A DNA stretch of 61,874 nt, the filler included, from Theionarchaea archaeon (GTDB taxonomy: Archaea > Methanobacteriota_B > Thermococci > Methanofastidiosales > SZ-28-30), in the NCBI GenBank assembly GCA_018992565.1. It is 3 parts of 3 records of this genome, joined end to end, with 100 filler letters (N's around TTAATTAATTAA, not from the genome) between each part and the next. Parts side by side here need not be neighbours in the genome. Positions count along the whole stretch, not along the records: positions 1 to 23,295 come from JACVGW010000041.1; 2 more parts are not named here. One strand, written 5' to 3'. The notes under the pieces are model-generated. The model made no database searches, was not told the origin of the DNA, and saw only the letters and a program-made list of their open reading frames with translations. Position 1 is the first letter of the stretch; each line of letters opens with the position of its first letter. This document shows positions 3,813 through 60,677 of this stretch, in pieces. A program made the translations under genes and the position numbers.

Positions 3813-3974
3813 ATGGATAAATATGAATGTAGTGTGTGCGGCTACATCTACGATCCAGAAAAGGGTGACCCCGATTCTGGCATAGATCCGGGAACATCTT
3901 TTGAAGACTTGCCTGAAGACTGGGTGTGCCCCGTATGTGGAGCACCAAAAAAAGCCTTCAAGAAGGTGAATTAA
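3813..3974 (+). CDS. Rubredoxin (53 aa; not in ORF track)
   Basis: Manual translation [67 protein letters not shown] overlap with next gene. Confidence 0.97.
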
Positions 3975-5149
3975 TGGCAGTCAGGAAGATCAAAAGTGGC
4001 ATATACTGGGTTGGGTCCCTCGATTGGGATCGCAGGCTCTTTGATGAACTGATTCCCCTTCCAGACGGTACCACATATAATGCATACATTGTGGAAGGTG
4101 AAAAGACTGCCCTCATTGATACTGTTGATCCTACCAAAGAGAGTGAACTGGTAGAAAACCTCAGTCAATGGGGAGGTTCCATTGATTTTGTTATAGCCAA
4201 CCATGCAGAACAGGATCATTCAGGTTCCATACCTGCGGTACTGGAGCTTTTTCCCCAGGCAAAAGTGGTGACAAACCCCAAGTGCAAGGGGATGCTCATG
4301 GACTCATTGTTGATTCCTGAGGAGAAGTTCATGACAATCAAGGATGGTGATACGCTCTCCCTGGGGGAGAGAACACTGCAGAGTTTCATGACTCCCTGGG
4401 TCCACTGGCCAGAAACCATGGTCACCTACCTGAAAGAAGAAAGAATCTTGTTCAGCTGTGATTTTCTGGGTTCCCATCTGGCAACCAGTGAGCTGTTTGT
4501 TCGAGATAAGGAGCGGGTGGTTGAATCTGCCAAGAGGTATTATGCTGAGATCATGATGCCTTTCAGAACCAGTATCAAGAGTCATTTGCAGAAAGTGGAT
4601 GCTCTGAAGGTGGATATTATTGCCCCCAGCCATGGCCCACTCTATGATGAACCGCAGTTCATACTGGATTGTTACAGGGAATGGGTTTCAGATACTGTGA
4701 AAAACGAGGTTATCCTGCCATTCGTTTCTATGCATGGGAGTACCCGGGCAATGGTGGATTACCTGATAGATGCCCTCATGAGTCGAGACATCACTGTAAA
4801 GCCCTTCAATCTGACACGAACAGACACTGGAGAACTGGCCAAAGCCCTGGTTGATGCAGCCACCATTGTGATAGCATGTCCCACTGTTTTGGCAGGACCT
4901 CATCCTGCGGCCGTGTATGCTGCGTACCTGGCGGGTGCACTGCGGCCCAAGACAAAGATAGTGGGCATCATTGGATCCTACGGATGGGGAGGAAAAACGG
5001 TGGAAGTCCTCAGCCAGCTTATAGGGAATCTCCAGGTTGAAGTTCTCGATCCAGTGATGATAAAAGGATACCCTGAGAAGGAGGGCTTCAGATTGCTGGA
5101 CAACCTGGCAGACGAAATCCTTAAAAGGCACAGAGCACTAAAAATATGA
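3974..5149 (+). CDS. fprA: Flavodiiron protein (FprA, type A flavoprotein)
   Basis: GTTYNAY, NHAEQDHSG, HWPE, PSHG, flavodoxin domain (SMHGST, GSYGWGG); start moved to ATG overlapping rubredoxin stop. Confidence 0.95.
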   Translation: MAVRKIKSGIYWVGSLDWDRRLFDELIPLPDGTTYNAYIVEGEKTALIDTVDPTKESELVENLSQWGGSIDFVIANHAEQDHSGSIPAVLELFPQAKVVTNPKCKGMLMDSLLIPEEKFMTIKDGDTLSLGERTLQSFMTPWVHWPETMVTYLKEERILFSCDFLGSHLATSELFVRDKERVVESAKRYYAEIMMPFRTSIKSHLQKVDALKVDIIAPSHGPLYDEPQFILDCYREWVSDTVKNEVILPFVSMHGSTRAMVDYLIDALMSRDITVKPFNLTRTDTGELAKALVDAATIVIACPTVLAGPHPAAVYAAYLAGALRPKTKIVGIIGSYGWGGKTVEVLSQLIGNLQVEVLDPVMIKGYPEKEGFRLLDNLADEILKRHRALKI

Positions 5150-5161
5150 GGAGGAAAGAAT

Positions 5162-5803
5162 ATGGAAGAAAAAATGCCTTTGATTGGGGATACATTCCCT
5201 CAGGTAGAAGTGGCGACGACGCACGGTAAAATGGTCTTACCTGATGCATATTCAGGTAAGTGGATGGTCTTCTTCAGCCATCCTGCTGATTTCACACCGG
5301 TATGCACTACTGAATTCGTGGCATTTCAGAAGAGAGTTGACCAGTTCAAGAGCTTGAATTGTGAACTCATTGGACTGAGTGTAGATCAGGTTTTTTCTCA
5401 CATCAAATGGATCGAATGGATCAAAGCAGCTTTAGATGTTGAAATACAGTTTCCGATTATTGCAGATACAGGAAAGGTTTCTAACATGCTGGGGTTAATA
5501 CATCCTGGAAAAGGAACAAACACTGTACGGGCTGTGTTCATTGTGGATCCCAAGGGGATCATTCGAGCAATTCTGTACTACCCTCAGGAACTGGGAAGAA
5601 ATATGGATGAAATCCTGCGGATGATAAAGGGGTTCCAGGTCAATGAGAAACATAACGTGGCTCTCCCTGCCAACTGGCCAGAAAACGAGCTGATAAAAGA
5701 TGAAGTAATTATACCACCTCCCTCAGATGAGAAGACTGCCCGGGAGAGAATGAAAGAGCACCAGTGTTTTGACTGGTGGTTCTGCCACAAGAAACTGAAA
5801 TGA
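5162..5803 (+). CDS. Peroxiredoxin (archaeal Prx6 type)
   Basis: [13 protein letters not shown] and C-terminal CFDWWFC. Confidence 0.95.
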
Positions 5804-5825
5804 AAAGGTAACAAGGAGGTATACT

Positions 5826-6203
5826 ATGACAAAAAAGCTACAGGTGTATAAGTGCACTGTATGTGGGAATATTGTCGAAGTGCTGCATGAAGGTGTGGGG
5901 CAGCTGGTGTGCTGCGGACAACCTATGGAGTTGATGGTGCCAAAAACAGCAGATGTGGGAAAGGAAAAACATGTCCCCGTTGTGGAGAAAAAGGACAATA
6001 CTGTAACAGTGAAAGTGGGCTCTATCCCCCACCCCATGGAGGCAACCCATTACATTGAGTGGGTTGAAGTTATTGCGGATGGTCGGGCATACCGCAAGTT
6101 CTTGAATCCAGGGGACAGCCCAGAAGCGAAATTCGAAATCGCCTTCAAAACCCTTGAAGTGAGAGAGTACTGCAATGTCCATGGACTATGGATGGCCACA
6201 TGA
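5826..6203 (+). CDS. dfx: Desulfoferrodoxin / superoxide reductase
   Basis: CxxCGN..CCG desulforedoxin domain, EKHVP, HPM, HYIEW, CNVHG. Confidence 0.95.
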
Positions 6204-6212
6204 GGTGTTGTC

Positions 6213-6740
6213 ATGATTAAGAAGGCAGTAGAGAAAGCCTTGAACAACCAGTTGAATGCTGAGCTGTATTCTTCGTATCTCTATCTCTCTATGTCGTCCT
6301 GGTTCAGTTCTCAGAACCTAAATGGATTTGCCAACTGGATGCGGGTACAGGCTCAAGAAGAACTCATGCATGCCATAAAATTCTATGACTATCTCATTCA
6401 GAGAGATGGACGGGTACTCCTCGTTGCTGTAGATGCGCCGCCCACCGGGTGGGATTCCCCTGAAGCGGTCTTTGAACATACATACCAGCATGAGCAGAAG
6501 GTCACTGAGTTGATTAATGACCTGGTTGATCTGTCTATTTCAGAAAAGGATCACGCCACCCATATGGTTCTCCAGTGGTTTGTGGATGAACAGGTAGAAG
6601 AAGAATCATCAGCCAGCGACATTCTTGGGAAGGTCAAGATGCTGAAAGAGAGCAAGAGCGGCATATATATGCTGGACAGGGAACTCAGCCAGAGGGTGTT
6701 CACTCCCCCCGCAGCCCAGGAACCTGCAACAGCACCGTGA
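6213..6740 (+). CDS. ftn: Ferritin
   Basis: [29 protein letters not shown]. Confidence 0.95.
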
Positions 6741-6752
6741 AGAGGGGTATCA

Positions 6753-7244
6753 ATGAACCTGAGTGAATACAGCTTGAAGGAATTGTTGCTTACTGCATTA
6801 GAAAGTGAAATTGAAAGTAGAAGTGTGTATGAAACACTTTCTAACAGGGTGAAAAACGCCTTTCTTAGAGACCGCCTTGCTTTCCTGGCAAATGAGGAAA
6901 AAAAGCACGGCATCTTTATTGAAGGTGTGTACAAGAAGACATTTCCCCAGGATATAATTATCTTGCCTGATGAGACCCCTGTTCCTCTACCTCTGGTGAA
7001 GATTCCCACAGAAGATGTCCCTCTGAGCTTCGTCTTTGAACAGGCCATGGAAGCAGAAAAAGCCTCCAGTGAGTTCTACCAGGGGCTGGTACATCAATTC
7101 CAGGATGTCAAAATACAGAAGACGCTAGCTGCTTTTGCAGCTATGGAAATGGATCACTACAGAATTCTTGAAGCTGAACACAAGACCATGAAGCGATTTG
7201 AAACCTTTGACACAGAATGGCCCATGATGAATGTGGGACCTTAA
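6753..7244 (+). CDS. Ferritin-like/rubrerythrin-family diiron protein
   Basis: E..S...Y, EExxH and EMDH diiron ligand patterns; no rubredoxin domain. Confidence 0.85.
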   Translation: MNLSEYSLKELLLTALESEIESRSVYETLSNRVKNAFLRDRLAFLANEEKKHGIFIEGVYKKTFPQDIIILPDETPVPLPLVKIPTEDVPLSFVFEQAMEAEKASSEFYQGLVHQFQDVKIQKTLAAFAAMEMDHYRILEAEHKTMKRFETFDTEWPMMNVGP

Positions 7245-7301
7245 TGCAGGAGCACGAAATTGCAGGTTGTATACCTGACGAATCTATAGAGATGTGATGT
7301 T

Positions 7302-7874
7302 ATGAACTTAAAAGGGACTCAAACAGAAGAGAATGTGCTAATCGCCTTCGCTGGCGAATCTCAGGCACGTAATCGCTACACCTTCTTTGCCTCTCAGGCC
7401 AAAAAGGAAGGATATGAACAGATCAAAGACATTTTTCTGGAAACAGCGGACAATGAGAAAGAACATGCAAAAAGACTATTCAAGTTCCTGGAAGGTGGGG
7501 AAGTGGAAATTACTGCTTCATATCCTGCTGGGACTATTGGCAGCACAAAGGAGAACTTGAAAGCGGCAGCAGAGGGAGAGAATTACGAGTATAGCACTAT
7601 GTACCCTCAATTTGCAGATGTTGCTGAGAAAGAAGGATTTCCAGAAATTGCTAGTGCTATGAGATCTATAGCGGTGGCAGAAAAACAGCACGAAAAGCGA
7701 TATCTTGCTTTGCGTGAGAATCTAGAAAAAAATCGGATATTCAAAAGAGAAAAACCCGTGAAATGGAGATGTGAAAATTGTGGATACATCCACGAAGGAA
7801 CAGAACCTCCTGAACAATGTCCCGCCTGTGCACATAGCAAAGCATATTTTGAACTGCTTGCGGAAAACTGGTGA
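7302..7874 (+). CDS. rbr: Rubrerythrin
   Basis: [23 protein letters not shown]-terminal CxNCG..CPAC. Confidence 0.97.
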
Positions 7875-8019: not shown

Positions 8020-8883
8020 ATGCACCTTCGAGATTGGTACGACCTGACCAGGCTGGATCATGGAATTCTGTGGGGTGCTGCTGTTGTAGTGGGAGAAATC
8101 CTGGCATACCGAGGAATCCCACCTCTGCAGTACATCATTTTGGGGTTTGCCGCTCCTCTTCTTGTTGAAATTGGCGTATTTTCTTTGAATGACTATATGG
8201 ATAGGGAGAGTGATATTCTCAACAACCGGATCGACAGGCCTCTCGTCCGAGGAGCATTCCCCAGACAGTACCCCCTCTATATTGCGCTGGTGATGCTGCC
8301 AGGAGCAGTAGTGGTGGGATTCATTTCCAGTCTCATGGTCCCTCTTATTCTCGTGATTCTGTTCTCTGCGCTGGGCGTTCTGTACAATGTCAAATTGAAA
8401 GGAGTACCCTGTGTCAAGAACTGCATCATGGGGGTGTGCATTGCGGCCCCCTTGCTGGGAGGAAACCTGATTGTAGAGGATGAGATCCTCCCTGTGGTTG
8501 CCCTTTTTGCCACCGCGGCTTTTTTGCTGGGAACAGGAAGAGAAATACTCAAGGACATGATGGACACTGCAGGAGACAAGGCAACTGGATGCAGGACACT
8601 TCCCCTGTTGATAGGCTCCAAGAACTCTGCCAGGATTGTCTTTTCTCTCTTTCTGGTATCATGCGTTGTGATCCTGTTTCCCTGTGGTTACCCCTGTGAC
8701 AGTTTCTATTTCCACGACATCTTGTACTTGATCTCAGCCTGCATAACATGTGGGCTCACAGTCTACTGTGCATGTTCTCTCCTGAAGGACTGGTCCAGAA
8801 CCCGTGTGGTTCTCCTGAGAAAAAGGACATTCAACATCCTTGAGCTGGGAGTCTTCACCTTCCTGTTAGGAGTGCTCTTCTGA
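8020..8883 (+). CDS. UbiA-family prenyltransferase, likely digeranylgeranylglyceryl phosphate synthase
   Basis: NDYMDRESD..N..DRPL..G and REILKDMMDxxGD aspartate-rich motifs; multi-TM. Confidence 0.85.
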   Translation: MHLRDWYDLTRLDHGILWGAAVVVGEILAYRGIPPLQYIILGFAAPLLVEIGVFSLNDYMDRESDILNNRIDRPLVRGAFPRQYPLYIALVMLPGAVVVGFISSLMVPLILVILFSALGVLYNVKLKGVPCVKNCIMGVCIAAPLLGGNLIVEDEILPVVALFATAAFLLGTGREILKDMMDTAGDKATGCRTLPLLIGSKNSARIVFSLFLVSCVVILFPCGYPCDSFYFHDILYLISACITCGLTVYCACSLLKDWSRTRVVLLRKRTFNILELGVFTFLLGVLF

Positions 8884-8885
8884 GC

Positions 8886-9764
8886 TCACTCGTTCCTGAT
8901 TCTTTTCAGTTTGGTGATCATTACTACCCCAATCAAGGAGATACATGACAGCATAATGAAATATACGTAATACTGAGACAGCGGAGGTTGAGCAGAAGCT
9001 GCATTTACGTGGACTTTCCTCACCTCAAAAGCAGAATAATCAGGTCTAATGACTTCAATTTGTTTTTCCTTTTCTTCAATGAGAATTCTCACCAGAAATG
9101 TCTTTTCGTATTCTCTGCCAAACCGATCCTTGTACATTACCCTGATAGACCCTGAATATTCCCCAGGATCCCCATATACTATGATTTCTTTGGATGCCCT
9201 GCTGAGCAAGTAGCCTATGTAGCTTTCATACTGTACTTTAAGGTCTGAAAGAATCTCAAACCTGAAATCAATGGCAACTTCATCTGAATTCTTGAATCCA
9301 ATGATCACCCTGTCACCCAGAACATTAAGAGTGGCAGATTCAAGGCTGATGGATGGTTCTCCATTCTTGATCTTGATAGTGTAGATCTTCTTATCCTCAA
9401 GCGTCTGGCATACACCGCCTTGGCACGTTTTTGAAGTCACCAGGCATGTGTAGGAAATAGTAACCGGATATTCCCCGTCTTCAAGAGATCTACAATGGAA
9501 TGTGAAGGCTGCCGTCTGTGAACCATATGGTAAGCTCTCGATCCGTGCTGACTTGTTATAGAACATGAGATCATTGCTGCTGACCCGGATTTCAATTCCT
9601 TCCGCCATCTGTCCTGAGTTATTGGTGAAGGTTACATTCATCGTTCCTTTATCCTGTGATTCATACACCGGTTTATCTGTGGTTATCTGGAGGGTAAGAA
9701 TGTCATCTGCCAGCACTGGTCCAAGAGATCCCAGAACAAGGATCACCAGAAGGAACCATCTCAT
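8886..9764 (-). CDS. Secreted/membrane-anchored hypothetical protein
   Basis: N-terminal signal peptide, TDKPVY Ig-like start, C-terminal TM plus basic tail. Confidence 0.75.
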   Translation of the reverse strand: MRWFLLVILVLGSLGPVLADDILTLQITTDKPVYESQDKGTMNVTFTNNSGQMAEGIEIRVSSNDLMFYNKSARIESLPYGSQTAAFTFHCRSLEDGEYPVTISYTCLVTSKTCQGGVCQTLEDKKIYTIKIKNGEPSISLESATLNVLGDRVIIGFKNSDEVAIDFRFEILSDLKVQYESYIGYLLSRASKEIIVYGDPGEYSGSIRVMYKDRFGREYEKTFLVRILIEEKEKQIEVIRPDYSAFEVRKVHVNAASAQPPLSQYYVYFIMLSCISLIGVVMITKLKRIRNE

Positions 9765-9885
9765 GCTGCGTTAATGGGACCCCTGATTTAAAAGACTTGT
9801 GGTCATGAACGAAAGGCCGAATCTGTGCTTTGCCTAGAAGTCAAACAGAGAAGACTGCTTTGAGCAAAAAAAGGAAGGCAGGGTT

Positions 9886-10044
9886 CTACCGACACTCTGA
9901 CCATGGAAATATCTTTCTGGCCACCCATACAATAAAGGCAGGAACAGCTCCCCCGTGGCCCCCGGCAAGCACTATGGGCCCAATACTGAGAATCTGTTCC
10001 TCTTCTGTCTGCTTGGGAGCAGATTGCGTCTTTTCAGACTGCAC
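9886..10044 (-). CDS. Small hypothetical protein, 52 aa (GTG start)
   Basis: AAGGTGA RBS just after upstream stop; MQSEKTQSAPKQTEEEQILSIGPIVLAGGHGGAVPAFIVWVARKIFPWSECR; followed by T-run. Confidence 0.5.
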   Translation of the reverse strand: MQSEKTQSAPKQTEEEQILSIGPIVLAGGHGGAVPAFIVWVARKIFPWSECR

Positions 10045-10055
10045 TAATATCACCT

Positions 10056-10184
10056 TTATTCTCTCTTAGTTTTCCTCTTCAGCCGGATTCTCTTCTTCAC
10101 TCGAACCCACTTCTTCTTGGGTCTGACCTTTATGTTGGGTGATTTCCTTAAAGGTCTGCGTTTTCTGTCTTTTCGTGATCCCAT
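10056..10184 (-). CDS. Very basic 42-aa protein, eS32/eL41-like ribosomal protein candidate
   Basis: MGSRKDRKRRPLRKSPNIKVRPKKKWVRVKKRIRLKRKTKRE; about half K/R; TATA-like AACCTTTATAT just upstream. Confidence 0.55.
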   Translation of the reverse strand: MGSRKDRKRRPLRKSPNIKVRPKKKWVRVKKRIRLKRKTKRE

Positions 10185-10356
10185 AATCCCACATTTTTTA
10201 GAACCATATAAAGGTTATGCAAGTCTTTTTCAATGAATCGAATCAGATTCACCTGATTGCACCCTGATAATAGAGGAGGGTAAAAGCAATTAGAGAAAAT
10301 CTCAAAGAAAGTAAAAAAAATAGTTATAGAAAGCTGCACTATCCGATTCAGCCACC

Positions 10357-10434
10357 CTACGCGTAGATTTCCATCTTTCCACCAGTGGAAGCAACGCAGG
10401 TAGCGTCCAGGTAGTCTTCAACTCGGGGTTCCAT
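10357..10434 (-). CDS. Putative RiPP precursor peptide A1, 25 aa
   Basis: MEPRVEDYLDATCVASTGGKMEIYA; AGGAGGTGA RBS, own BRE/TATA, downstream T-tract; co-oriented with rSAM/PqqD operon. Confidence 0.85.
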   Translation of the reverse strand: MEPRVEDYLDATCVASTGGKMEIYA

Positions 10435-10477
10435 CGTTCTCACCTCCTGTACAGTGATTATACAACATATTTCTTTG

Positions 10478-10497
10478 AGTTATTAAGCTTTTTGGTG
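10478..10497 (-). promoter_or_regulatory. BRE/TATA promoter of precursor A1
   Basis: Minus strand CACCAAAAAGCTTAATAACT about 45-60 nt upstream of ATG; conserved in both copies while the intervening spacer diverges. Confidence 0.75.
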
Positions 10498-10648
10498 CGT
10501 TCGGAGTATGATGCACCACGTGGGAGGTATTAACCCGAACTCTGTTACGGATAAGGGATAAGCAGAGAGATACGTCAAGGAACGCTCTTTCAAAAAAGAA
10601 ATAAAAGAAAAATATGGTATGTCAGGTCTTGTTCTTTCTACTCCCGGC

Positions 10649-10723
10649 TTAGAGGTACTCCATCTTTCCACCAGTGGAAGCAACGCAGGTAGCGTCCAGG
10701 TAGTCTTCAACTCGGGGTTCCAT
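10649..10723 (-). CDS. Putative RiPP precursor peptide A2, 24 aa
   Basis: MEPRVEDYLDATCVASTGGKMEYL; same RBS and promoter as A1. Confidence 0.85.
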   Translation of the reverse strand: MEPRVEDYLDATCVASTGGKMEYL

Positions 10724-10766
10724 CGTTCTCACCTCCTGTACAGTGATTGTTGAGTATATTCTTCTA

Positions 10767-10786
10767 AGTTATTAAGCTTTTTGGTG
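10767..10786 (-). promoter_or_regulatory. BRE/TATA promoter of precursor A2
   Basis: Identical CACCAAAAAGCTTAATAACT element at same spacing. Confidence 0.75.
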
Positions 10787-11014
10787 GTAATACATGTACA
10801 CATTTAAATAAGAAAAATTTCATTTCTACTCTATAAAATAGAGCAATATTATATTTATCTACACTTCAGAGTCACAGAAGAAAGAACATCATCAATGAAA
10901 TCTCTCTCAGCATAGGTTGATCTCTAGGGGACCACGAATATCTGTGAAGAACCGGTGTATGTTTTTTGGCTCAGGAAAAGCGGTAGTAGGCCCCATCCAC
11001 CCGACATGTGCCTG

Positions 11015-12022
11015 CTAAAGAGTGTCTGGATGATACAGACAATAGGGATCAGGTTCTTCAAAAGCTCCTCTCACCATATGTGCCGCAGCAATACATCCTC
11101 CACCGCACTCTGTTACATATGTGCACGTCGCACACTTTCCTCCTGTGATCACTGCGTCCCGTGCTCTCTGCAGCAGTGAGGATGTCTCCCACATGCACTT
11201 GAACCCCTCTTTCGCCACAGACTCATCCTGTATCGTGATGTAGGGGCAGGGAGTGATATTCCCTTCTGCAGTTATGGAACAGACCTGGACTCCCGCGGGG
11301 CATCTACGCCCTGCTTGTTCAGAAAAATCAAAAGCTTCTTCAATCTCGTAGTGAAGTCCCTTTTTATCGTATTGACTGCGGTTCCGTGCGTACCCTATGA
11401 TAATGGGGTTCAGTATGGTAGGATCTGGCAAGTGCTCATCGTTCTCCTTCCTGGGTATATATCTGCGAATATGGGCCAGGACTAGTCCCTGCTCATGCGC
11501 CCACTCTGGAAAAGAGGGGGCCTGGTGTATGTTATGGCTCATGGGCATGAATGACACAAAAGCTCGTATCTCAAGGTCTCTCAGCATGGCAAGAGTGTCA
11601 AGCAGTGTATCAAATGATCCAGGGATCCCTGTAATTGCATCATGGGTGTCTGAAGTGATGCCAAACAGAGGAAGGTCAAGTGCACCTAGGTGCGCCTCTC
11701 TGAGGGCTTTTGCCCGGGACTCAGTGAGCAGCAGCCCGTTAGTCTGCACGAGACTCCAGACGGGGCGACCCCTAAGGTGGATTAGAAGCTCCTCCAGCCC
11801 TGAGTAGAGTAGTGGCTCGCCTCCTGTAAAATATATCTTAAATACTCTCTCTTCCACCAATTCATCAAGAATTCTCTTGGCAACCTCTACATCCAGAGAT
11901 ACATTCTCATTCCTTACGAGGCAGTGTGCGCAGTGAAGGTTGCACTTCCGGGTTACCTCCAGGTAGACTGTCAGGGGTGCTCTCATTCTTTTCCCGGAGT
12001 TCTCTCTTCTGAGCGGAGTCAT
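11015..12022 (-). CDS. Radical SAM/SPASM protein (#4 of cluster)
   Basis: CNLHCAHC, TGGEP, SPASM CPAG..C..GNITPC..CxxCxxxxxCGGGC..DPYC; ATGA overlap with upstream gene. Confidence 0.92.
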   Translation of the reverse strand: MTPLRRENSGKRMRAPLTVYLEVTRKCNLHCAHCLVRNENVSLDVEVAKRILDELVEERVFKIYFTGGEPLLYSGLEELLIHLRGRPVWSLVQTNGLLLTESRAKALREAHLGALDLPLFGITSDTHDAITGIPGSFDTLLDTLAMLRDLEIRAFVSFMPMSHNIHQAPSFPEWAHEQGLVLAHIRRYIPRKENDEHLPDPTILNPIIIGYARNRSQYDKKGLHYEIEEAFDFSEQAGRRCPAGVQVCSITAEGNITPCPYITIQDESVAKEGFKCMWETSSLLQRARDAVITGGKCATCTYVTECGGGCIAAAHMVRGAFEEPDPYCLYHPDTL

Positions 12023-13032
12023 GGGTCTCCCTCTACAAAACACTGATAGTCTGAAGCGTACAAATCATGAGTTTTCGCGTACACAGCAGCTCTGCATCCT
12101 CCTCCACATTGATGAAGATGTGTGCAGGAGCTACACTTTCCGTGAATCTTGTCCAGGGCTCTGAATCGGGCCATCACAGGAGAATGTGCCCAGATTTTCC
12201 TGAAATCCTGGTCCAGCACGCTGCCGCAGTAAAATGCAGGATCATCAAACATAGGGCAAGGCACCACCTGGCCGTTGGCTTTTATTCCTGCCAGAGTGCG
12301 TCCCGCCTGACATCCCACCCATTGATGGGGGTTCTCTTTTCCATGGAGAAGGAATCCAAACGCTTCATCTGCCACAGCATGAATGGTCCCCTTGTATCCA
12401 TAGATCTCTTCCAATACCCAGCGATATTCTGTAGGCGTCAGGTCCATTGAACTCATTTCTGCTGCCCTTCCGGTATAGATCAACCGGTAGAACCTGATAG
12501 TGAAGGCACCCAATTTCTCGGCAAGCTGAACCAGTTCTGTAATTTCAGAGAAGTTCTTTCGATAGACTACGGTGGTAACCCCAAAAGGTATTCCTGCCTC
12601 TTTCAGAATGCCTGTGGCCTCAAGGACTCTCTGGAAAGCTCCCTGCCTCTTTCTAAGATAGTCATGGGCTTCTTCCAGTCCGTCAAGACTGAGCTGGACC
12701 ATGGACACTCCCGAGGACTTCAAAGCTGAGGCTTCTTCCCCATAGATGAGCATCCCATTGGTGGCCAGTTCCACTGGAACCCATTGAGCAGCATACTGGA
12801 TGAGATCGAAGATGTCTTTTCGTAGAAGAGGTTCTCCTCCTGAAAAGGACAGCCTGAATACCTTTGCTCTGACCACCTGATCAATGATGGTCATGGCTTC
12901 GCGAGTGGTAAGTTCGTGGACGCTGGCAGGCGTGGCCTCTACATAGCAGTGCCTGCAGTTCAAGTTGCACCTGTTGGTGACGTCCCAGATAATGCTATTG
13001 GGAGCTGATAAGTGTGTCCTATTCATTTTCAT
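12019..13032 (-). CDS. Radical SAM/SPASM protein (#3 of cluster)
   Basis: CNLNCRHC, SGGEP, CQAG..GQVVPC..CSSC..CGGGCRA; start at MKMNRT (13032 or 13026). Confidence 0.93.
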   Translation of the reverse strand: MKMNRTHLSAPNSIIWDVTNRCNLNCRHCYVEATPASVHELTTREAMTIIDQVVRAKVFRLSFSGGEPLLRKDIFDLIQYAAQWVPVELATNGMLIYGEEASALKSSGVSMVQLSLDGLEEAHDYLRKRQGAFQRVLEATGILKEAGIPFGVTTVVYRKNFSEITELVQLAEKLGAFTIRFYRLIYTGRAAEMSSMDLTPTEYRWVLEEIYGYKGTIHAVADEAFGFLLHGKENPHQWVGCQAGRTLAGIKANGQVVPCPMFDDPAFYCGSVLDQDFRKIWAHSPVMARFRALDKIHGKCSSCTHLHQCGGGCRAAVYAKTHDLYASDYQCFVEGDP

Positions 13033-14014
13033 TCCTCCAGCAGTAGGGATCCTTCCTGGTAGCATCCTGGTATCGTGCATATGCAGCTGCAGGGCATCCT
13101 CCCTTGCAGAAATCAGCAATTTCGCACGTACATACTCTTTTCATCTCTCTAAAATGCTCAGCAGATTCAGAATGCCAGATTTCATCAAATTCATCAGATA
13201 AAAGGTCCCCCATGAGAAATTCGTCATGTGCCAGAAAAATACAGGGATACACCTTCCCAGAGGAATCAACCCCACACTCAGTGCGCCCCGCAGGACACCC
13301 GTACCATGAGAGATTGTATTCCTCAATTCTCCTTCCCAGAAAGCTCATGCATTCATCAGGTACTATGTCAAGAACATTCTCATGCAGCCTTCTCTGTTCC
13401 AGCAGAACCTCAATGAGCGACTTGGTCTGAGCAGGTGTGAGAGCTTCACTTTCAAGAGCATCACCTCTCCCCATGAGGATGAGGCGGCTGGCTCTGAACT
13501 GAGTGACTCCCCACTCAACCGCTTTTTCCAGTAGAAGGGGAATTTCAGAGAGGTTTTGCTGCGAAACCAGAGTATTTACAGAAACAGGTACTCCATTTTC
13601 CACCAGGTAGCTAATCCCTTCTACAGACTTAGCAAAACAGCCCTTCATCTGCCTCTGATAGTCATGGTTTTCTTCCAATCCGTCAATGCTAATCTGGACC
13701 GAATCACAGCCAGTTTCCTTAATCCTCTGGGCAACTCGTTCTGTAATCAGCGTACCGTTGGATATCAACTGGACATACTTCTTTTCTTGTTTGAACATGG
13801 GGATAATATTCCAGATTTCTGGTTCCATGAGAGGTTCTCCTCCACTGAGAGTTGCAAGAAAGATGCCAGAATGAGCGAGCTTGTCAGCTATGGTCAAGAG
13901 CTCTCTGGGTGGAAGGCTCCTGCCTGATCCTGATGAGTTGTAGCAATGTCTGCATGACAGGTTACACCGGGTAGTTATGTCCCAGATGACTCGAAGTGGA
14001 GCACGCAAGGTCAC
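13019..14014 (-). CDS. Radical SAM/SPASM protein (#2 of cluster)
   Basis: CNLSCRHC, SGGEP, CPAGRTEC..GKVYPC..CTC..CKGGCPA..DPYC. Confidence 0.93.
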   Translation of the reverse strand: MTLRAPLRVIWDITTRCNLSCRHCYNSSGSGRSLPPRELLTIADKLAHSGIFLATLSGGEPLMEPEIWNIIPMFKQEKKYVQLISNGTLITERVAQRIKETGCDSVQISIDGLEENHDYQRQMKGCFAKSVEGISYLVENGVPVSVNTLVSQQNLSEIPLLLEKAVEWGVTQFRASRLILMGRGDALESEALTPAQTKSLIEVLLEQRRLHENVLDIVPDECMSFLGRRIEEYNLSWYGCPAGRTECGVDSSGKVYPCIFLAHDEFLMGDLLSDEFDEIWHSESAEHFREMKRVCTCEIADFCKGGCPAAAYARYQDATRKDPYCWRNENE

Positions 14015-14060: not shown

Positions 14061-15032
14061 TCACTTCTTGCTCAGTGGACACCCCGGATCGAGGTCCAGA
14101 GATTGGGTGATGCGGTATGCGGCTGCCCGACATCCTCCACACAGACTGCAGTATGAGCAACTCTGACATCCCTCCAGTCCCTTACGGAAGGCGTTGAGAA
14201 AGTCCCACTCTTTCCATATGGTCTTCAAATCTGAATCCCAGATTACAGGGGCATCAATTGACTCAGCCAGGGGCTTTGAGGCAAAATGGGGGCAGGGTAC
14301 TACATATCCATCGCAGGTAATCATTGCAGATGTTTTTCCTCCCACGCATCCCTGGAATGCATTCTTGTTGATCCTTTCTTTGTATGGGGTCAGGTGGAGG
14401 AACGTATAGCAGTTGTTGGGAATGATATTTCTTCCTTTCTTCTTGAGGTCATACACCCTGCTCAGGAGGTCCATGCATTGATCTGGACCGAGGTAGTCAG
14501 TGGGATGGATGTATCGAAGGATGCGATGGGCATTCACAGAAAACTGAGACACAATATCTGAGGTGGCCTCCAGGTATGAGAGGTTTTGCGGCGTCACCAC
14601 AGTTCCTACATGTGTGTCAATGTCCAGATCGCAAAAGGTCTTCATAGCCTCAAGCGTTCTCTGGAAACTCCCTTCCCCTCTGATAGAATCGTGATATTCT
14701 TCCGGCCCTTCTATGGGGAACTGGATCATATTCAGGTTAGCATTCCGAAGAGCTTCAGCTTGTGATATGTCTTCAGCCCCGGACACGAGGCCCACCACCA
14801 TAGGTTTCCTCCGCATGTACTCGACCAACTCTGCAATCCCCTCCCACAGCAAGGGCTCACCACCATCTATAAGTACGGTGAATACCTTGGCTTCCCATAA
14901 GAGGTCTACCAGGGAGAAGGCCTCTTTCTGGGATAGAGAAGCACCATCGGGGGGAGCATAGCACTCTAAAGCACAGGCTGCACATTTTCTGGAAACCTGA
15001 AGGTAAACATAGGTGGGGCTGGAGAACATCAT
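14061..15032 (-). CDS. Radical SAM/SPASM-like protein with atypical CX2CX3C motif (#1 of cluster)
   Basis: CAACALEC in place of CX3CX2C, DGGEP, SPASM CVGG..GYVVPC..CQSC..CGGCRA..GC; starts 1 nt after PqqD stop. Confidence 0.88.
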   Translation of the reverse strand: MMFSSPTYVYLQVSRKCAACALECYAPPDGASLSQKEAFSLVDLLWEAKVFTVLIDGGEPLLWEGIAELVEYMRRKPMVVGLVSGAEDISQAEALRNANLNMIQFPIEGPEEYHDSIRGEGSFQRTLEAMKTFCDLDIDTHVGTVVTPQNLSYLEATSDIVSQFSVNAHRILRYIHPTDYLGPDQCMDLLSRVYDLKKKGRNIIPNNCYTFLHLTPYKERINKNAFQGCVGGKTSAMITCDGYVVPCPHFASKPLAESIDAPVIWDSDLKTIWKEWDFLNAFRKGLEGCQSCSYCSLCGGCRAAAYRITQSLDLDPGCPLSKK

Positions 15033-15033
15033 A

Positions 15034-15294
15034 TTACAGCCACCCGATGAGCTTCCGCTCATCCATATCCTTCAAGAAAGCATCCACCTGTTCTCTGACA
15101 TCTTCAAGTTCCTCTCCTTCTTTTTGTGAGAGTGTCTCTGCAATAGTGCTAACATCCATGGTTCCGTCACACATACTCCAGATGAGAAATCCATCTTTGT
15201 TCAGTTTGTGCATCCGTCCTGCCCCGGGATCAAAGATGATAGCTCCAAAATCCTCCTCTCTACAGATCACATCTTCTCGCTGTTTTGGGATCAT
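15034..15294 (-). CDS. Stand-alone PqqD-family RiPP recognition element (RRE)
   Basis: 86 aa; LN..G..IW..CDG...V..I...L......E.V...V..FL..M....LI pattern. Confidence 0.92.
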   Translation of the reverse strand: MIPKQREDVICREEDFGAIIFDPGAGRMHKLNKDGFLIWSMCDGTMDVSTIAETLSQKEGEELEDVREQVDAFLKDMDERKLIGWL

Positions 15295-16508
15295 TCACTC
15301 ACCTTTGGGGGATTTGCAGGTAGAACAAAGTGTAGCATGATGATGGTAGCGACGACCATGGCAGCGCACAGGAAGAAGGGTACGCGCAGGCTGGTGAGTC
15401 CTCCTACGGCAGAGCCCAGTATAGGGCCAACCATAGATCCAATGCTGCAAACGCAGATGACTGCTCCGCTGGCAGTTCCCCTCTGTGATGAGACTGTCAC
15501 ATCACCAATAAGACTGTAAGCAACAGTAGCATATGGGGCAGCTCCTATGCCCACCAGCATGTAGCTGATAAAGAACATGAGGGGATTGACAGACAGGCCC
15601 GCCAAAGACACACCCACTACATAGATGAACAGGGGGTATATCAAGAGGCGCTTTCTCCCTAGCCGGTCTGACATGGTACCTGCCACAAATTGGGAAACAG
15701 CATACAGAATACCCAGTGAGGTGCCCAGGATTCCCAGCATTGTGTACGTCATGCCCAGCTCTTCTACAGCAAATATGCTCATGATGGGAGTGAGAATCCC
15801 ACTGGCGAAGTAAAGCATACCAAACATCAACAGGACTGTAAGGAAGACCAGGTTGCCCACGAGTTCTCTTGTGGGAAGCCTCATTTTCTGAACAGTAAAT
15901 CCTGTCCCCAGTTCTCTGAATTGAACGAGGAAGAAGACTGCCGCTATCATGGGAAAAATTGTACCCACATAGAATAACGGGTTAAAGCTCCCAGTAGAGT
16001 CTCTTATTACACCTCCCACCGTAGGTGCAGCCATGCTGGCCAGCGTCGTGAGCAACGCAAACGTGCCCAGTGCTTGTCCTCTATTCTCCTCTGTGGTCTT
16101 GTCCATTACATATGCGCGCGCAATAGGAAAGATGAATCCTATGATTCCTCCATGTGCTGCCCTCAAGAGCAAGAGCTGTGTTGTGGTGTGGGCCAGGGTA
16201 TACGAGAATACTATCCCTCCCAATAAGAACAAGCTCAGCGTAATGAGGTTTCTGCCAATCCTGTCTGAAATGTATCCTGCAGGCAGGGAAATCAGCGCAT
16301 TAAACAGAGAGTAGACAAGTGCAAAAGCACCCAGTTGCACCACAGGGACACCAAAGTCCTTGAGGAAAAGGTACAGGAATGCGCCGTAGATCTGTTCCCC
16401 AAAGAGCACCAGTGACATGACAATGCTGAACAGCAGAATCAGAGCTTCTACTCGAATCAGATCAGAAAATCTCTTCTTGAGTCTACTTATTCCTTCATCT
16501 ATTATCAT
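15291..16508 (-). CDS. MFS transporter
   Basis: About 12 TM; G..SDRIGR and G..SDRLGRK motifs; stop overlaps PqqD start. Confidence 0.92.
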   Translation of the reverse strand: MIIDEGISRLKKRFSDLIRVEALILLFSIVMSLVLFGEQIYGAFLYLFLKDFGVPVVQLGAFALVYSLFNALISLPAGYISDRIGRNLITLSLFLLGGIVFSYTLAHTTTQLLLLRAAHGGIIGFIFPIARAYVMDKTTEENRGQALGTFALLTTLASMAAPTVGGVIRDSTGSFNPLFYVGTIFPMIAAVFFLVQFRELGTGFTVQKMRLPTRELVGNLVFLTVLLMFGMLYFASGILTPIMSIFAVEELGMTYTMLGILGTSLGILYAVSQFVAGTMSDRLGRKRLLIYPLFIYVVGVSLAGLSVNPLMFFISYMLVGIGAAPYATVAYSLIGDVTVSSQRGTASGAVICVCSIGSMVGPILGSAVGGLTSLRVPFFLCAAMVVATIIMLHFVLPANPPKVSE

Positions 16509-16735: not shown

Positions 16736-17686
16736 CTAGATAACCTTCTGTATCTTAACATGTTTTTGAGCAGGCACAAACCCCAGTTCCTTGAGAAGGG
16801 TTCGCTCAGGGAGATTATCTTCCATTACCATGTAGTCCAGAATGTATTCTGCATTCCACTTTCTCATCTCTTGCAGCATTTCAACATACAGAGCAGACCC
16901 AATCCCCATACCTCTGAATTCCTTGAGAACACCGTTGTTCAGGACCCTGCCCACAACCCTGTTCTTATTAAACACCTTCTGAAATGATATAAGAGCTCCA
17001 ATGAAGCCTGCTGGCACCTCCTTCACTTCTGCAAATATCCACACCCCAATCATGTGTCTCTGGCCCTGGTACATGACAGAATCCAGATGTTCCTCATGGA
17101 TTTGAGACATGTTGGGGATTTCAGCGCTGATCTCATTGACCAGAGCAGTATATGTCTTGATATCTTCTCTCAGGTTTTTTGATATACGTAAGTCTACCTT
17201 CTCTTTTGTTTTTTTGTAATAACCAAGCATGAGTTCAGTGATGGGGAGAGATCCTTCTCTGATGAATGTGTCTTCCTTATACAGTTCCTGGTATCCTTTT
17301 TCTTTGAACAGAACGACAAACCGCGAATTGAAATCAGCTATCCGCGTGGTGATCCTGGTAACCCCTTTCTGAGCCAGTACAGTCTCGCATTCCTGCAGCA
17401 GTTCGTCCTCAATTTTCCCACGATATGGTGTGGCAATCCACAAATCCAGCCAGTACGTATCTCCAAGAAAGCAGCTTCTCTTGCCAGGCGCTATTCGAGT
17501 GGTGAATCCTGCCTGGACATTGTCATTCTCTTCCACAACCCAGTAGGTTCTTTCTGTTCCATCGGGTACTGGTTTGTTCATATCGATTTCACTGACAGGT
17601 GCACAGACATCTCCGTGCTCCCACTCTTTCTGGCAGTATTCTGCCCACTGGGGCTGTTCCTGCACACGAAGTCCTCTTACCTCCAC
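16736..17686 (-). CDS. Tandem-domain GNAT family N-acetyltransferase
   Basis: Two acetyl-CoA-binding motif A-like segments (IATPYRGK; GVLKEFRGMGIG), N..ERTLLKELGF. Confidence 0.8.
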   Translation of the reverse strand: MEVRGLRVQEQPQWAEYCQKEWEHGDVCAPVSEIDMNKPVPDGTERTYWVVEENDNVQAGFTTRIAPGKRSCFLGDTYWLDLWIATPYRGKIEDELLQECETVLAQKGVTRITTRIADFNSRFVVLFKEKGYQELYKEDTFIREGSLPITELMLGYYKKTKEKVDLRISKNLREDIKTYTALVNEISAEIPNMSQIHEEHLDSVMYQGQRHMIGVWIFAEVKEVPAGFIGALISFQKVFNKNRVVGRVLNNGVLKEFRGMGIGSALYVEMLQEMRKWNAEYILDYMVMEDNLPERTLLKELGFVPAQKHVKIQKVI

Positions 17687-18213
17687 TATTTCACCACCTC
17701 CTCCATGTACTCAGTTTCGGGAATTTCAAGTTCCACATGAGCGGAATTCTCTGGAATGTCATATTCATCCAGGAAGAAGGCAAACAGAAGGATATCCTTG
17801 CCATCAACAGTATGTTTTCTCAGACAGCCCTCATACGTATAACCAAGGAAATTCAAAAGAGATACCATCATGGGGTTCCTACCAATAACAGAATCAGTGA
17901 CTTTATTCCTACCTTCTGCCTTAAACACCTTTAGAGCTGCAATATACAAATTGGTACCTATTTCATGCCCTCTACATTCTCTATCAACCACAATGACCCC
18001 ATTTTTGCCAATTGTTTTTGAAGGTCTGTGCAGAACATGAGCGCCAACTACTGTGCTCTCCATGCATGCACTGAGAATGGAAATCTTTCCTCTCTTATTG
18101 GCATTTACTGCATTTCGTATCTCTTTCTCTCTTTTGTCATAACTAGATTGAGAAAAAATTCGTACTATATCCACTAAATCATCCGGAATGCTCGGTCTGA
18201 TGACTATTTTCAT
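17686..18213 (-). CDS. GNAT family N-acetyltransferase
   Basis: VVDRECRGHEIG, N......LGYTYEGCLRKH (RimJ/RimL-like tail). Confidence 0.82.
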   Translation of the reverse strand: MKIVIRPSIPDDLVDIVRIFSQSSYDKREKEIRNAVNANKRGKISILSACMESTVVGAHVLHRPSKTIGKNGVIVVDRECRGHEIGTNLYIAALKVFKAEGRNKVTDSVIGRNPMMVSLLNFLGYTYEGCLRKHTVDGKDILLFAFFLDEYDIPENSAHVELEIPETEYMEEVVK

Positions 18214-23295: not shown

Positions 23296-23395
23296 NNNNN
23301 NNNNNNNNNNNNNNNNNNNNNNNNNNNNNNNNNNNNNNNTTAATTAATTAANNNNNNNNNNNNNNNNNNNNNNNNNNNNNNNNNNNNNNNNNNNN
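23296..23395. other. Assembly gap with TTAATTAATTAA linker
   Basis: N-run flanking a stop-codon linker. Confidence 0.95.
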
Positions 23396-46519: not shown

Positions 46520-46619
46520 NNNNNNNNNNNNNNNNNNNNNNNNNNNNNNNNNNNNNNNNNNNNTTAATTAATTAANNNNNNNNNNNNNNNNNNNNNNNNN
46601 NNNNNNNNNNNNNNNNNNN
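46520..46619. other. Assembly gap with TTAATTAATTAA linker
   Basis: N-run with linker. Confidence 0.95.
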
Positions 46620-60577: not shown

Positions 60578-60677
60578 NNNNNNNNNNNNNNNNNNNNNNN
60601 NNNNNNNNNNNNNNNNNNNNNNNNNNNNNNNNNNNNNNNNNNNNNNNNNNNNNNNNNNNNNNNNNNNNNNNNNNNNN
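60578..60677. other. Assembly gap (100 N)
   Basis: N-run. Confidence 0.95.

Follow-up and report, generated by a model that had tools for sequence, protein, structure and literature searches.

Results

Two mini-genes and the operon upstream of them

The window (the whole stretch of DNA analyzed here, 61,874 nucleotides [nt], filler included) is a chain of several contigs from a Theionarchaea archaeon, with runs of N at positions 23296-23395, 46520-46619, and 60578-60677. Its first contig (positions 1-23295; C119) is part of a 2.8-Mb metagenome-assembled genome (MAG), G000, which is 88% complete. On the minus strand of this contig lie two mini-open reading frames (mini-ORFs), which we treat as neighboring precursor genes. 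Gene A (ATG at 10723 to stop at 10649) encodes a peptide of 24 amino acids, MEPRVEDYLDATCVASTGGKMEYL, and gene B (ATG at 10434 to stop at 10357) encodes a peptide of 25 amino acids, MEPRVEDYLDATCVASTGGKMEIYA; both are members of a family of 61 peptides. These mini-genes probably encode precursors of RiPPs (peptides that are ribosomally synthesized and then posttranslationally modified) that are acted on by an adjacent cassette with a PqqD-type protein and radical S-adenosylmethionine (SAM)/SPASM enzymes. The best reading of these sequences is a lineage-restricted archaeal RiPP system in which one enzyme set would serve many dispersed precursors.

Directly upstream of copy A is a tight operon on the same strand, which encodes a major facilitator superfamily (MFS) transporter, a PqqD-type protein, and four radical SAM enzymes (rS1 to rS4), followed by a 291-nt gap and copy A. 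This context was absent from the preliminary description of the pair. The transporter gene (15291-16508, minus strand, like all genes of the operon) encodes a likely exporter closest to drug:H+ antiporter types (PF07690, 179.7 bits; TIGR00880, 118.3 bits, under the cutoff of 131). Its stop is overlapped by the start of the next gene (15034-15294), which encodes a protein of 86 amino acids that matches PF05402 (52.9 bits; cutoff, 23.4). The AlphaFold model of this protein (predicted local distance difference test score, 91) has as its top Foldseek matches TbiB1, lasso peptide B1 (solved with leader peptides), and PqqD (5sxy), at template modeling scores of 0.81 to 0.89. Judged by domain match and modeled fold, the protein is a PqqD-family peptide chaperone with the leader-binding fold of a RiPP recognition element (RRE).

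The four enzymes are minimal (323 to 336 amino acids), and the radical SAM domain begins within ~50 residues of the N terminus. All four score above the cutoff for PF04055, rS1 to rS3 also do so for SPASM (PF13186), and rS2 to rS4 carry the CxxxCxxC motif and SPASM cysteine motifs. The Pfam Radical_SAM and SPASM scores are 54.6 and 25.4 bits for rS1 (14061-15032), 98.4 and 41.6 bits for rS2 (13019-14014; GTG start), and 94.2 and 40.1 bits for rS3 (12019-13026; the frame is open to 13119, and the probable start is a conserved Met at 13026). rS4 (11015-11986; open to 12043, with the start at 11986 taken from an orthologue alignment) scores 75.4 bits for Radical_SAM. It has no Pfam SPASM match at an E value of ≤0.001, aligns from end to end with the models of MftC and PqqE, and has CxxxCxxC at C34 and Cx2Cx5Cx3C at C304 to C317 plus flanking cysteines. 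In place of the usual motif, rS1 has a C-x2-C-x3-C triad that is kept in five cassette orthologues. Of these three cysteines, two never vary over an alignment of 19 rows, and at least 90% of the rows retain the third. Pfam finds no PqqD or RRE domain within rS1 to rS4, which fits a separate chaperone. The nearest solved relatives of the four are the peptide modifiers PqqE, SkfB, SuiB, CteB, and anSME, with the sugar-nucleotide enzyme BlsE also among the matches. The locus thus combines the features by which a radical SAM/SPASM RiPP system with a PqqD-type RRE is recognized: a radical SAM cluster motif, SPASM, an RRE, and an adjacent small precursor gene.

Structure and origin of the pair

Genes A and B lie in a direct repeat of 128 nt (10370-10497 and 10659-10786), which a repeat search returned at 93% identity with a start-to-start spacing of 289 nt. 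Base-by-base comparison divides this repeat into two identical blocks. The first (20 nt; 10786-10767 and 10497-10478) holds an element resembling a B recognition element (BRE)/TATA box, and the second (90 nt; 10748-10659 and 10459-10370) runs from upstream of GGAGGTG into codon 22. There are 9 mismatches in the 18 nt separating the blocks, and 3′ of codon 22 the copies are essentially unalignable; the peptides differ only in their last residues, and both have a penultimate Tyr. Rereading the sequence together with this comparison confirmed the preliminary description of the pair throughout (spacing, shared blocks, diverged spacer, penultimate Tyr, and T-rich tracts). Rfam gave no matches on window positions 9600-11100.

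Each copy is, as far as its sequence tells, a self-contained expression unit, in agreement with the private promoters first proposed for the pair. Predicted in silico on the minus strand are the BRE/TATA-like promoter blocks (10767-10786 for copy A and 10478-10497 for copy B), GGAGGTG ribosome-binding sites (10730-10736 and 10441-10447), and oligo-T tracts that are putative archaeal terminators (10592-10612 after copy A; 10304-10320, with T8, after copy B). Throughout the family (63 distinct copies; see below), a GGAGG-type site at most 20 nt from the ATG was found in 62 of 63 copies, as was a run of five or more T's at most 80 nt past the stop, mostly 30 to 40 nt past it. A crude TATA pattern was matched by 44 of the 63, with its mode at -52, and many paralogues have an element near this position similar to that of copy A. 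In many copies, these elements read like the archaeal BRE/TATA consensus. Archaeal promoters of this kind predict leadered, monocistronic RNAs of ~140 nt for the peptide genes, and it is only from the quality of the promoters and ribosome-binding sites that the precursors might be expected to be highly expressed.

That the two copies might be an assembly artifact was a concern raised with the preliminary description. However, the sequence of both tails and of the 199-nt spacer between the copies is unique. An independent DNA run (X15, from a study not marked as a possible source) has a single contig piece that covers 10430-10688 with 0 differences; it takes in the whole spacer and reaches 30 nt into the identical block on either side. 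This 30-nt overlap is 1 letter under the 31-letter bridging rule, and the extent of the piece is the outcome of a k = 31 graph on a true tandem repeat. In X15 and in a second DNA run, X14, the 90-nt block forms a separate piece with a depth above that of its flanks, as for a collapsed true repeat. Moreover, tandem arrays of two to four copies are found on other contigs and in other assemblies. An assembly duplication is ruled out by the unique spacer and tails, the independent run X15, and these arrays.

The C119 copies are identical across the 20 and 90 nt of the two blocks, all synonymous sites included; other paralogues differ by 11 to 20% over the same stretch. Two copies on another contig of the genome (C47, locus L009; 5864-6440) have a near-identical 5′ untranslated region (UTR) and different tails. 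This mosaic of identical promoter and leader blocks with diverged flanks and tails suggests gene conversion or module shuffling as a better account of the paralogues than simple duplication and drift.

Distribution of the peptide family

We identified nine copies of the peptide gene in G000 (a pair on C119, a tandem array of four on C47, and single copies on C79, C143, and C33) and eight in G002, an 84% complete MAG ("uncultured Thermococci archaeon") that represents a second species of the same genus. A scan of Joint Genome Institute metagenomes with the motif VEDYxD[AST]TC returned 54 loci, and sediment metagenomes added 46 distinct copies. With duplicates removed, the family numbers 63 distinct copies of the gene, which encode 61 unique peptides of 23 to 29 residues. 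One gammaproteobacterial match (L037) was rejected as an out-of-frame chance match; the gene that contains it is presumably an aminoacyl-tRNA synthetase.

The system is restricted to a Theionarchaea lineage. In a sample of the phylum, the peptide was found in 2 of 133 genomes (G000 and G002), and a motif scan of a collection of 185,579 species, with one genome each, returned G002 only. Both G000 and G002 have the peptides and the cassette. Two relatives, G001 from the same genus (91% complete) and G003 from the same family, had no peptide at an E value of ≤0.001 and no orthologue of rS1 or rS4, the two enzymes searched, for which the best matches were 27 to 31% identical. Among 5.8 billion proteins, rS1 is represented by 21 sequence clusters, all at ≥64% identity, whose source names are only generic (for instance, "radical SAM protein [Theionarchaea archaeon]"). 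Runs from six studies contain the stretch, under the labels marine sediment, soil, mangrove, and unspecified metagenomes. For the peptides themselves, NCBIfam has no family matching A or B at an E value of ≤0.01.

Peptide anatomy and selection

Eight residues (P, E, D, D, T, C, A, and S) do not vary over the 63 copies, and a Tyr is kept in 62. Each of the eight is encoded by two to four synonymous codons (for instance, GAA in 28 copies and GAG in 35; GAC in 25 and GAT in 38). Because invariant residues use several synonymous codons, the aligned sequences indicate that the mini-genes are real and that their reading frame is under protein-level selection. The absence of a conserved frame in relatives, named at the outset as evidence that would count against the genes, was thus not observed.

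Positions 3 to 16 have the consensus P-x-V-E-D-Y-x-D-x-T-C-V-A-S and are followed by T or S and two small residues, with TGG in 40 of 61 unique peptides. The small-residue pair before the tail is GG, GS, GA, AG, or GC in 58 of the 61. The N-terminal 16 to 19 residues are conserved, and the C-terminal 4 to 10 residues vary, so that a conserved N-terminal part with a variable C terminus, first seen in two copies, holds for the whole family. M, L, A, V, and F abound in the tail, which lacks Cys, Trp, and Gln. It contains exactly one Met in 61 of 61 peptides, a pattern matched by 0 of 20,000 residue shuffles (at most 41 tails were satisfied in any shuffle). This Met has no fixed place: it occupies tail position 2 in 40 peptides, and in the rest it comes later, near the C terminus. 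Tyr is penultimate in 4 of the 61 tails, C-terminal in 8, and present anywhere in 18. Thus, although the penultimate Tyr is found in both members of the pair, it is not a feature of the family, whose conserved tail residue is the single Met, and the idea of a Tyr-centered core does not hold.

All of the invariant Cys, Tyr, Asp, and Thr residues fall inside the supposed leader, and the tail offers only Met. We therefore think that the conserved N-terminal part may be a carrier of modification sites and not a mere leader. Within it, the Y-x-D segment presumably resembles the three-residue cyclophane motif of triceptides, and we take D-x-x-C to be similar to the NxxC motif of beta-thioethers.

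Conservation of the cassette

The order MFS, PqqD, rS1, rS2, rS3, rS4, and peptide is the same in six of six distinct cassettes, those of G000, G002, and the metagenome lineages L063 (grouped with L055/L056), L089, L093 (grouped with L094), and L103. The PqqD-type gene is present in all four other distinct cassettes whose sequence spans its position, and in each cassette a peptide gene lies 150 to 290 nt after rS4. Enzyme identity across cassettes is 56 to 70% (56 to 60% for the rS4 orthologues in the five other cassettes). A tree of 23 enzymes resolves four orthogroups with support of 99 to 100, which indicates that all four enzymes predate the divergence of these lineages and have been retained. 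In L063, rS4 is followed by two peptide genes, and L103 (2862-9700) has peptide genes before MFS, between rS1 and rS2, and after rS4. In the interleaved precursors of L103, the small-residue pair is replaced by TV, TM, or MV.

Two genes for GNAT acetyltransferases of 316 and 175 amino acids (16736-18213, minus strand) are possibly members of the unit as well. They occur in synteny in G000, G002, and the contigs of L055/L056 and are not found upstream of the L103 cassette.

Discussion

Proposed mechanism

Under the RiPP reading, the PqqD protein would bind the invariant N-terminal segment (P-x-V-E-D-Y-x-D-x-T-C-V-A-S) and present the peptide to the four enzymes, each of which might introduce a single modification by radical chemistry (a cross-link or an epimerization, for example). 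The MFS protein would export the products. Orphan copies (those with no cassette gene nearby) would be processed in trans by the same enzymes, which would yield a small library of congeners, at least nine in G000. The two product congeners first proposed for the pair may therefore be several, with nine precursors in this genome.

A thioether from Cys13, the only Cys of the peptide, to the single Met of the tail would give macrocycles of varying size, and the other enzymes could act on the invariant Tyr8, Asp10, or Thr12. We put forward the Cys13-Met link tentatively, as possible but doubtful. It is suggested by the precedent of SkfB, whose cross-link in SkfA is formed at the Met12 alpha-carbon (PMC6231123), and by the position of SkfB as the best solved relative of rS2. 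Wider in its extent, and in our view likewise unlikely, is a full combinatorial library: one PqqD protein and four enzymes acting on at least nine dispersed, separately promoted precursors, with Cys13-Met thioether macrocycles, cross-links at Tyr, Asp, and Thr, and mosaic recombination of promoter, leader, and tail modules, together forming a new RiPP class confined to Theionarchaea.

Alternative explanations

The most serious alternative is a classical leader and core, in which the 19 conserved residues ending in GG would be only a leader that is cut at the small pair, and only the tail of 4 to 10 residues would be modified and released. This is close to the preliminary description, which placed a core near GG-KME(I)Y. 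The small pair in 58 of 61 peptides speaks for it, as does the combination of a conserved N terminus with a variable C terminus, the usual RiPP layout; the pair presumably resembles double-glycine cleavage sites. However, the tail would offer four enzymes just one conserved residue (Met), and the sole Cys, the Tyr, two Asp, and the Thr are invariant inside the part to be discarded. Further, C39 peptidase (PF03412) had 0 matches in G000 and G002 (88% and 84% complete), in a search whose control was positive in 7 of 14 genomes, and the cassette encodes no protease. Among the neighbors of orphan copies, no protease recurs either. A core released at GG is unlikely in light of these results. What stands of the earlier interpretation is that the genes are real, selected, and self-contained; its Tyr-centered core falls, and it had overlooked the operon.

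It could also be that the peptide is the precursor of a redox cofactor like pyrroloquinoline quinone (PQQ) or mycofactocin, with the invariant Glu, Asp, Tyr, and Cys cross-linked and excised as a small molecule. A PqqD-type chaperone next to PqqE- and MftC-like enzymes is compatible with this idea, since rS3 scores 190 bits against the mycofactocin maturase model and 146 bits against the PqqE model, and an acidic residue and a Tyr are close together among the invariant residues, at a spacing that, we presume, differs from that of PqqA. Yet these scores fall short of the cutoffs (265 and 381 bits), a cofactor precursor would not be expected in nine copies per genome whose hypervariable tails each keep one Met, the exporter points to a secreted product, and the system is missing from the closest relatives, unlike a core cofactor. 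We consider a cofactor quite improbable.

That the mini-genes are small proteins unrelated to the radical SAM operon (regulatory or membrane-active peptides, for instance) and only incidentally adjacent to it would agree with the promoter and terminator of each copy and with the location of most copies as orphans among housekeeping genes, but it is very improbable given a peptide gene after rS4 in six of six cassettes, the interleaved genes of L103, the joint presence or joint absence of peptides and enzymes within the family, and a dedicated leader-binding protein in the operon.

Several points nonetheless weigh against the RiPP reading. For modification, binding, and transcription alike, it rests on sequence and model evidence, and the link between Cys and Met is drawn from conservation and a distant relative only. 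Processing in trans is assumed, as no cassette gene lies near 46 of the 54 metagenome loci or near 7 of the 9 G000 copies; among the neighbors of the orphan copies, only radical SAM, MFS, and PqqD genes recur beyond close synteny. The count of six of six cassettes is biased because the four metagenome cassettes were reached via the peptide search, and the enzyme-led scan, in which an rS4 alignment was run against 185,579 species with one genome each, yielded the G002 cassette only, from a collection that possibly excluded the window's own genome. rS1 lacks the canonical CxxxCxxC motif, and the cassette is without a protease of its own. It is important to note that none of rS1 to rS4 reaches the cutoff of any NCBIfam family (best scores, 218 of 500 bits for NirJ2, 190 of 265 for MftC, and 146 of 381 for PqqE), so that their chemistry cannot be transferred from a known family. 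Finally, in metatranscriptome runs X19 and X20, no contig lies on the peptide genes, only on 9883-10175; this result is neutral on transcription, as RNAs of ~140 nt rarely assemble and DNA can occur in RNA libraries.

Comparison with known systems

As in PQQ biosynthesis, the proposed RiPP system has a stand-alone PqqD-family chaperone (PF05402; fold match, 5sxy) and a tiny precursor gene beside the enzymes, and PqqE (6c8v) is the top or second solved match for rS2 to rS4. It differs in having four enzymes instead of one, many precursors with variable tails, and an exporter. The equivalog models place it outside the family, with at most 146.4 of 381.35 bits for PqqE (TIGR02109) and 33.1 of 46 bits for PqqD (TIGR03859). 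The same is true of mycofactocin, for which the enzymes reach at most 190.3 of 265 bits for MftC (TIGR03962) and MftB is matched at 13.4 of 33 bits. The C-terminal residue of the mycofactocin precursor is an invariant Tyr, and only 8 of 61 tails here end in Tyr. Heme and heme d1 enzymes (AhbC, AhbD, and NirJ) are the top NCBIfam names, but with 89 to 218 bits against cutoffs of 500 to 650, and the peptide and PqqD context likewise speaks against them.

The sactipeptide pair SkfA/SkfB offers a further parallel, since SkfB (6efn) is the best solved relative of rS2 (E value, 3e-22) and the second best of rS3. SkfB is reported to form a thioether at the Met alpha-carbon (PMC6231123), and one invariant Cys and one invariant Met are present here, with the link between them a guess. 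SkfB differs, however, in that its radical SAM core aligned only from approximately residue 107 onward, preceded by an additional N-terminal portion; in the present cassette, the leader-binding protein stands alone. The curated sactisynthase families were not reached (StsB, 125.7 versus 625 bits; SkfB, 99 versus 300; AlbA, 80.4 versus 850). SynChlorMet (ScmD/ScmE/ScmF) likewise combines a PqqD-like protein with paralogous radical SAM/SPASM enzymes, and ScmD is the best NCBIfam match of the 86-amino-acid protein, but at 38.5 versus 100 bits, with ScmE and ScmF at 64 to 119 versus 400 bits. We found no paper on the SynChlorMet cassette in the literature, so nothing could be transferred from it.

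A parallel for the arrangement of the precursors is that of the prochlorosins, in which many dispersed ProcA precursors with conserved leaders and variable cores are reported to be served by one promiscuous ProcM (PMC10783134). There is no family relationship, as prochlorosins involve a lanthionine synthetase instead of radical SAM enzymes, bacterial hosts, and much longer cores. Among archaea, CrpA/CrpC of Methanococcus voltae pairs a SPASM radical SAM enzyme with thioether cross-links on the product of a neighboring gene, although the substrate is a cysteine-rich protein and the single enzyme CrpC has its own predicted RRE (PMC13692751). We saw no sequence link between CrpA/CrpC and the peptide family. 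Our literature searches on Theionarchaea radical SAM enzymes, archaeal RiPPs and SPASM proteins, genome mining, and SynChlorMet returned no description of this family, and one on the C-x2-C-x3-C motif of rS1 brought up nothing of use among the matches listed. The kind of system, a PqqD-assisted radical SAM/SPASM RiPP pathway, is thus known; what is distinct is the combination of four enzymes, dispersed and self-promoted precursors, a floating invariant Met, and an archaeal host.

Little is known of archaeal RiPPs, and the modified peptides that radical SAM enzymes produce in archaea are almost unexplored; the only biochemical example that came up in our searches dates from 2026 (PMC13692751). 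The system described here is clearly delimited, with an exporter, a leader-binding protein, four enzymes, and 61 natural variants that mark Tyr8, Asp10, Thr12, Cys13, and the tail Met. The enzymes lie outside the curated families, and one has a noncanonical cluster motif. Genes of 23 to 29 codons are largely missed by gene calling; an exact lookup in ~15 billion proteins found neither peptide A nor peptide B, and two relatives of 29 amino acids are present there, unnamed. This abundant, uncultured sediment lineage may use the products as signals or weapons.

Neighboring genes

On C47, the tandem array of four paralogues (5864-7112, minus strand) lies 2.5 kb from a gene for a PqqD-radical SAM-SPASM fusion (9604-11025, plus strand). 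At ≥45% identity, a counterpart of this fusion gene is missing from the 54 metagenome loci and from the cassette locus of G002, and for this reason the gene probably belongs to a separate system.

On C119, downstream of the pair, an ORF of 292 amino acids (9764-8886) and small ORFs at 9886-10339 were considered and rejected as members of the unit, as they have no relatives in any locus compared. The 292-amino-acid ORF matches no Pfam family, in a scan that left out the small ORFs. The transcriptome-covered stretch 9883-10175 lies in the 590-nt gap between copy B and this ORF and could be an unannotated RNA, a 5′ UTR, or DNA carryover. Farther along the contig, positions 3926-7874 (plus strand) hold a run of oxidative-stress genes, which encode a flavodiiron-like metallo-beta-lactamase protein, a peroxiredoxin, a desulfoferrodoxin, a ferritin, and two rubrerythrins, and this run is followed by a gene for a UbiA prenyltransferase at 8020-8883.

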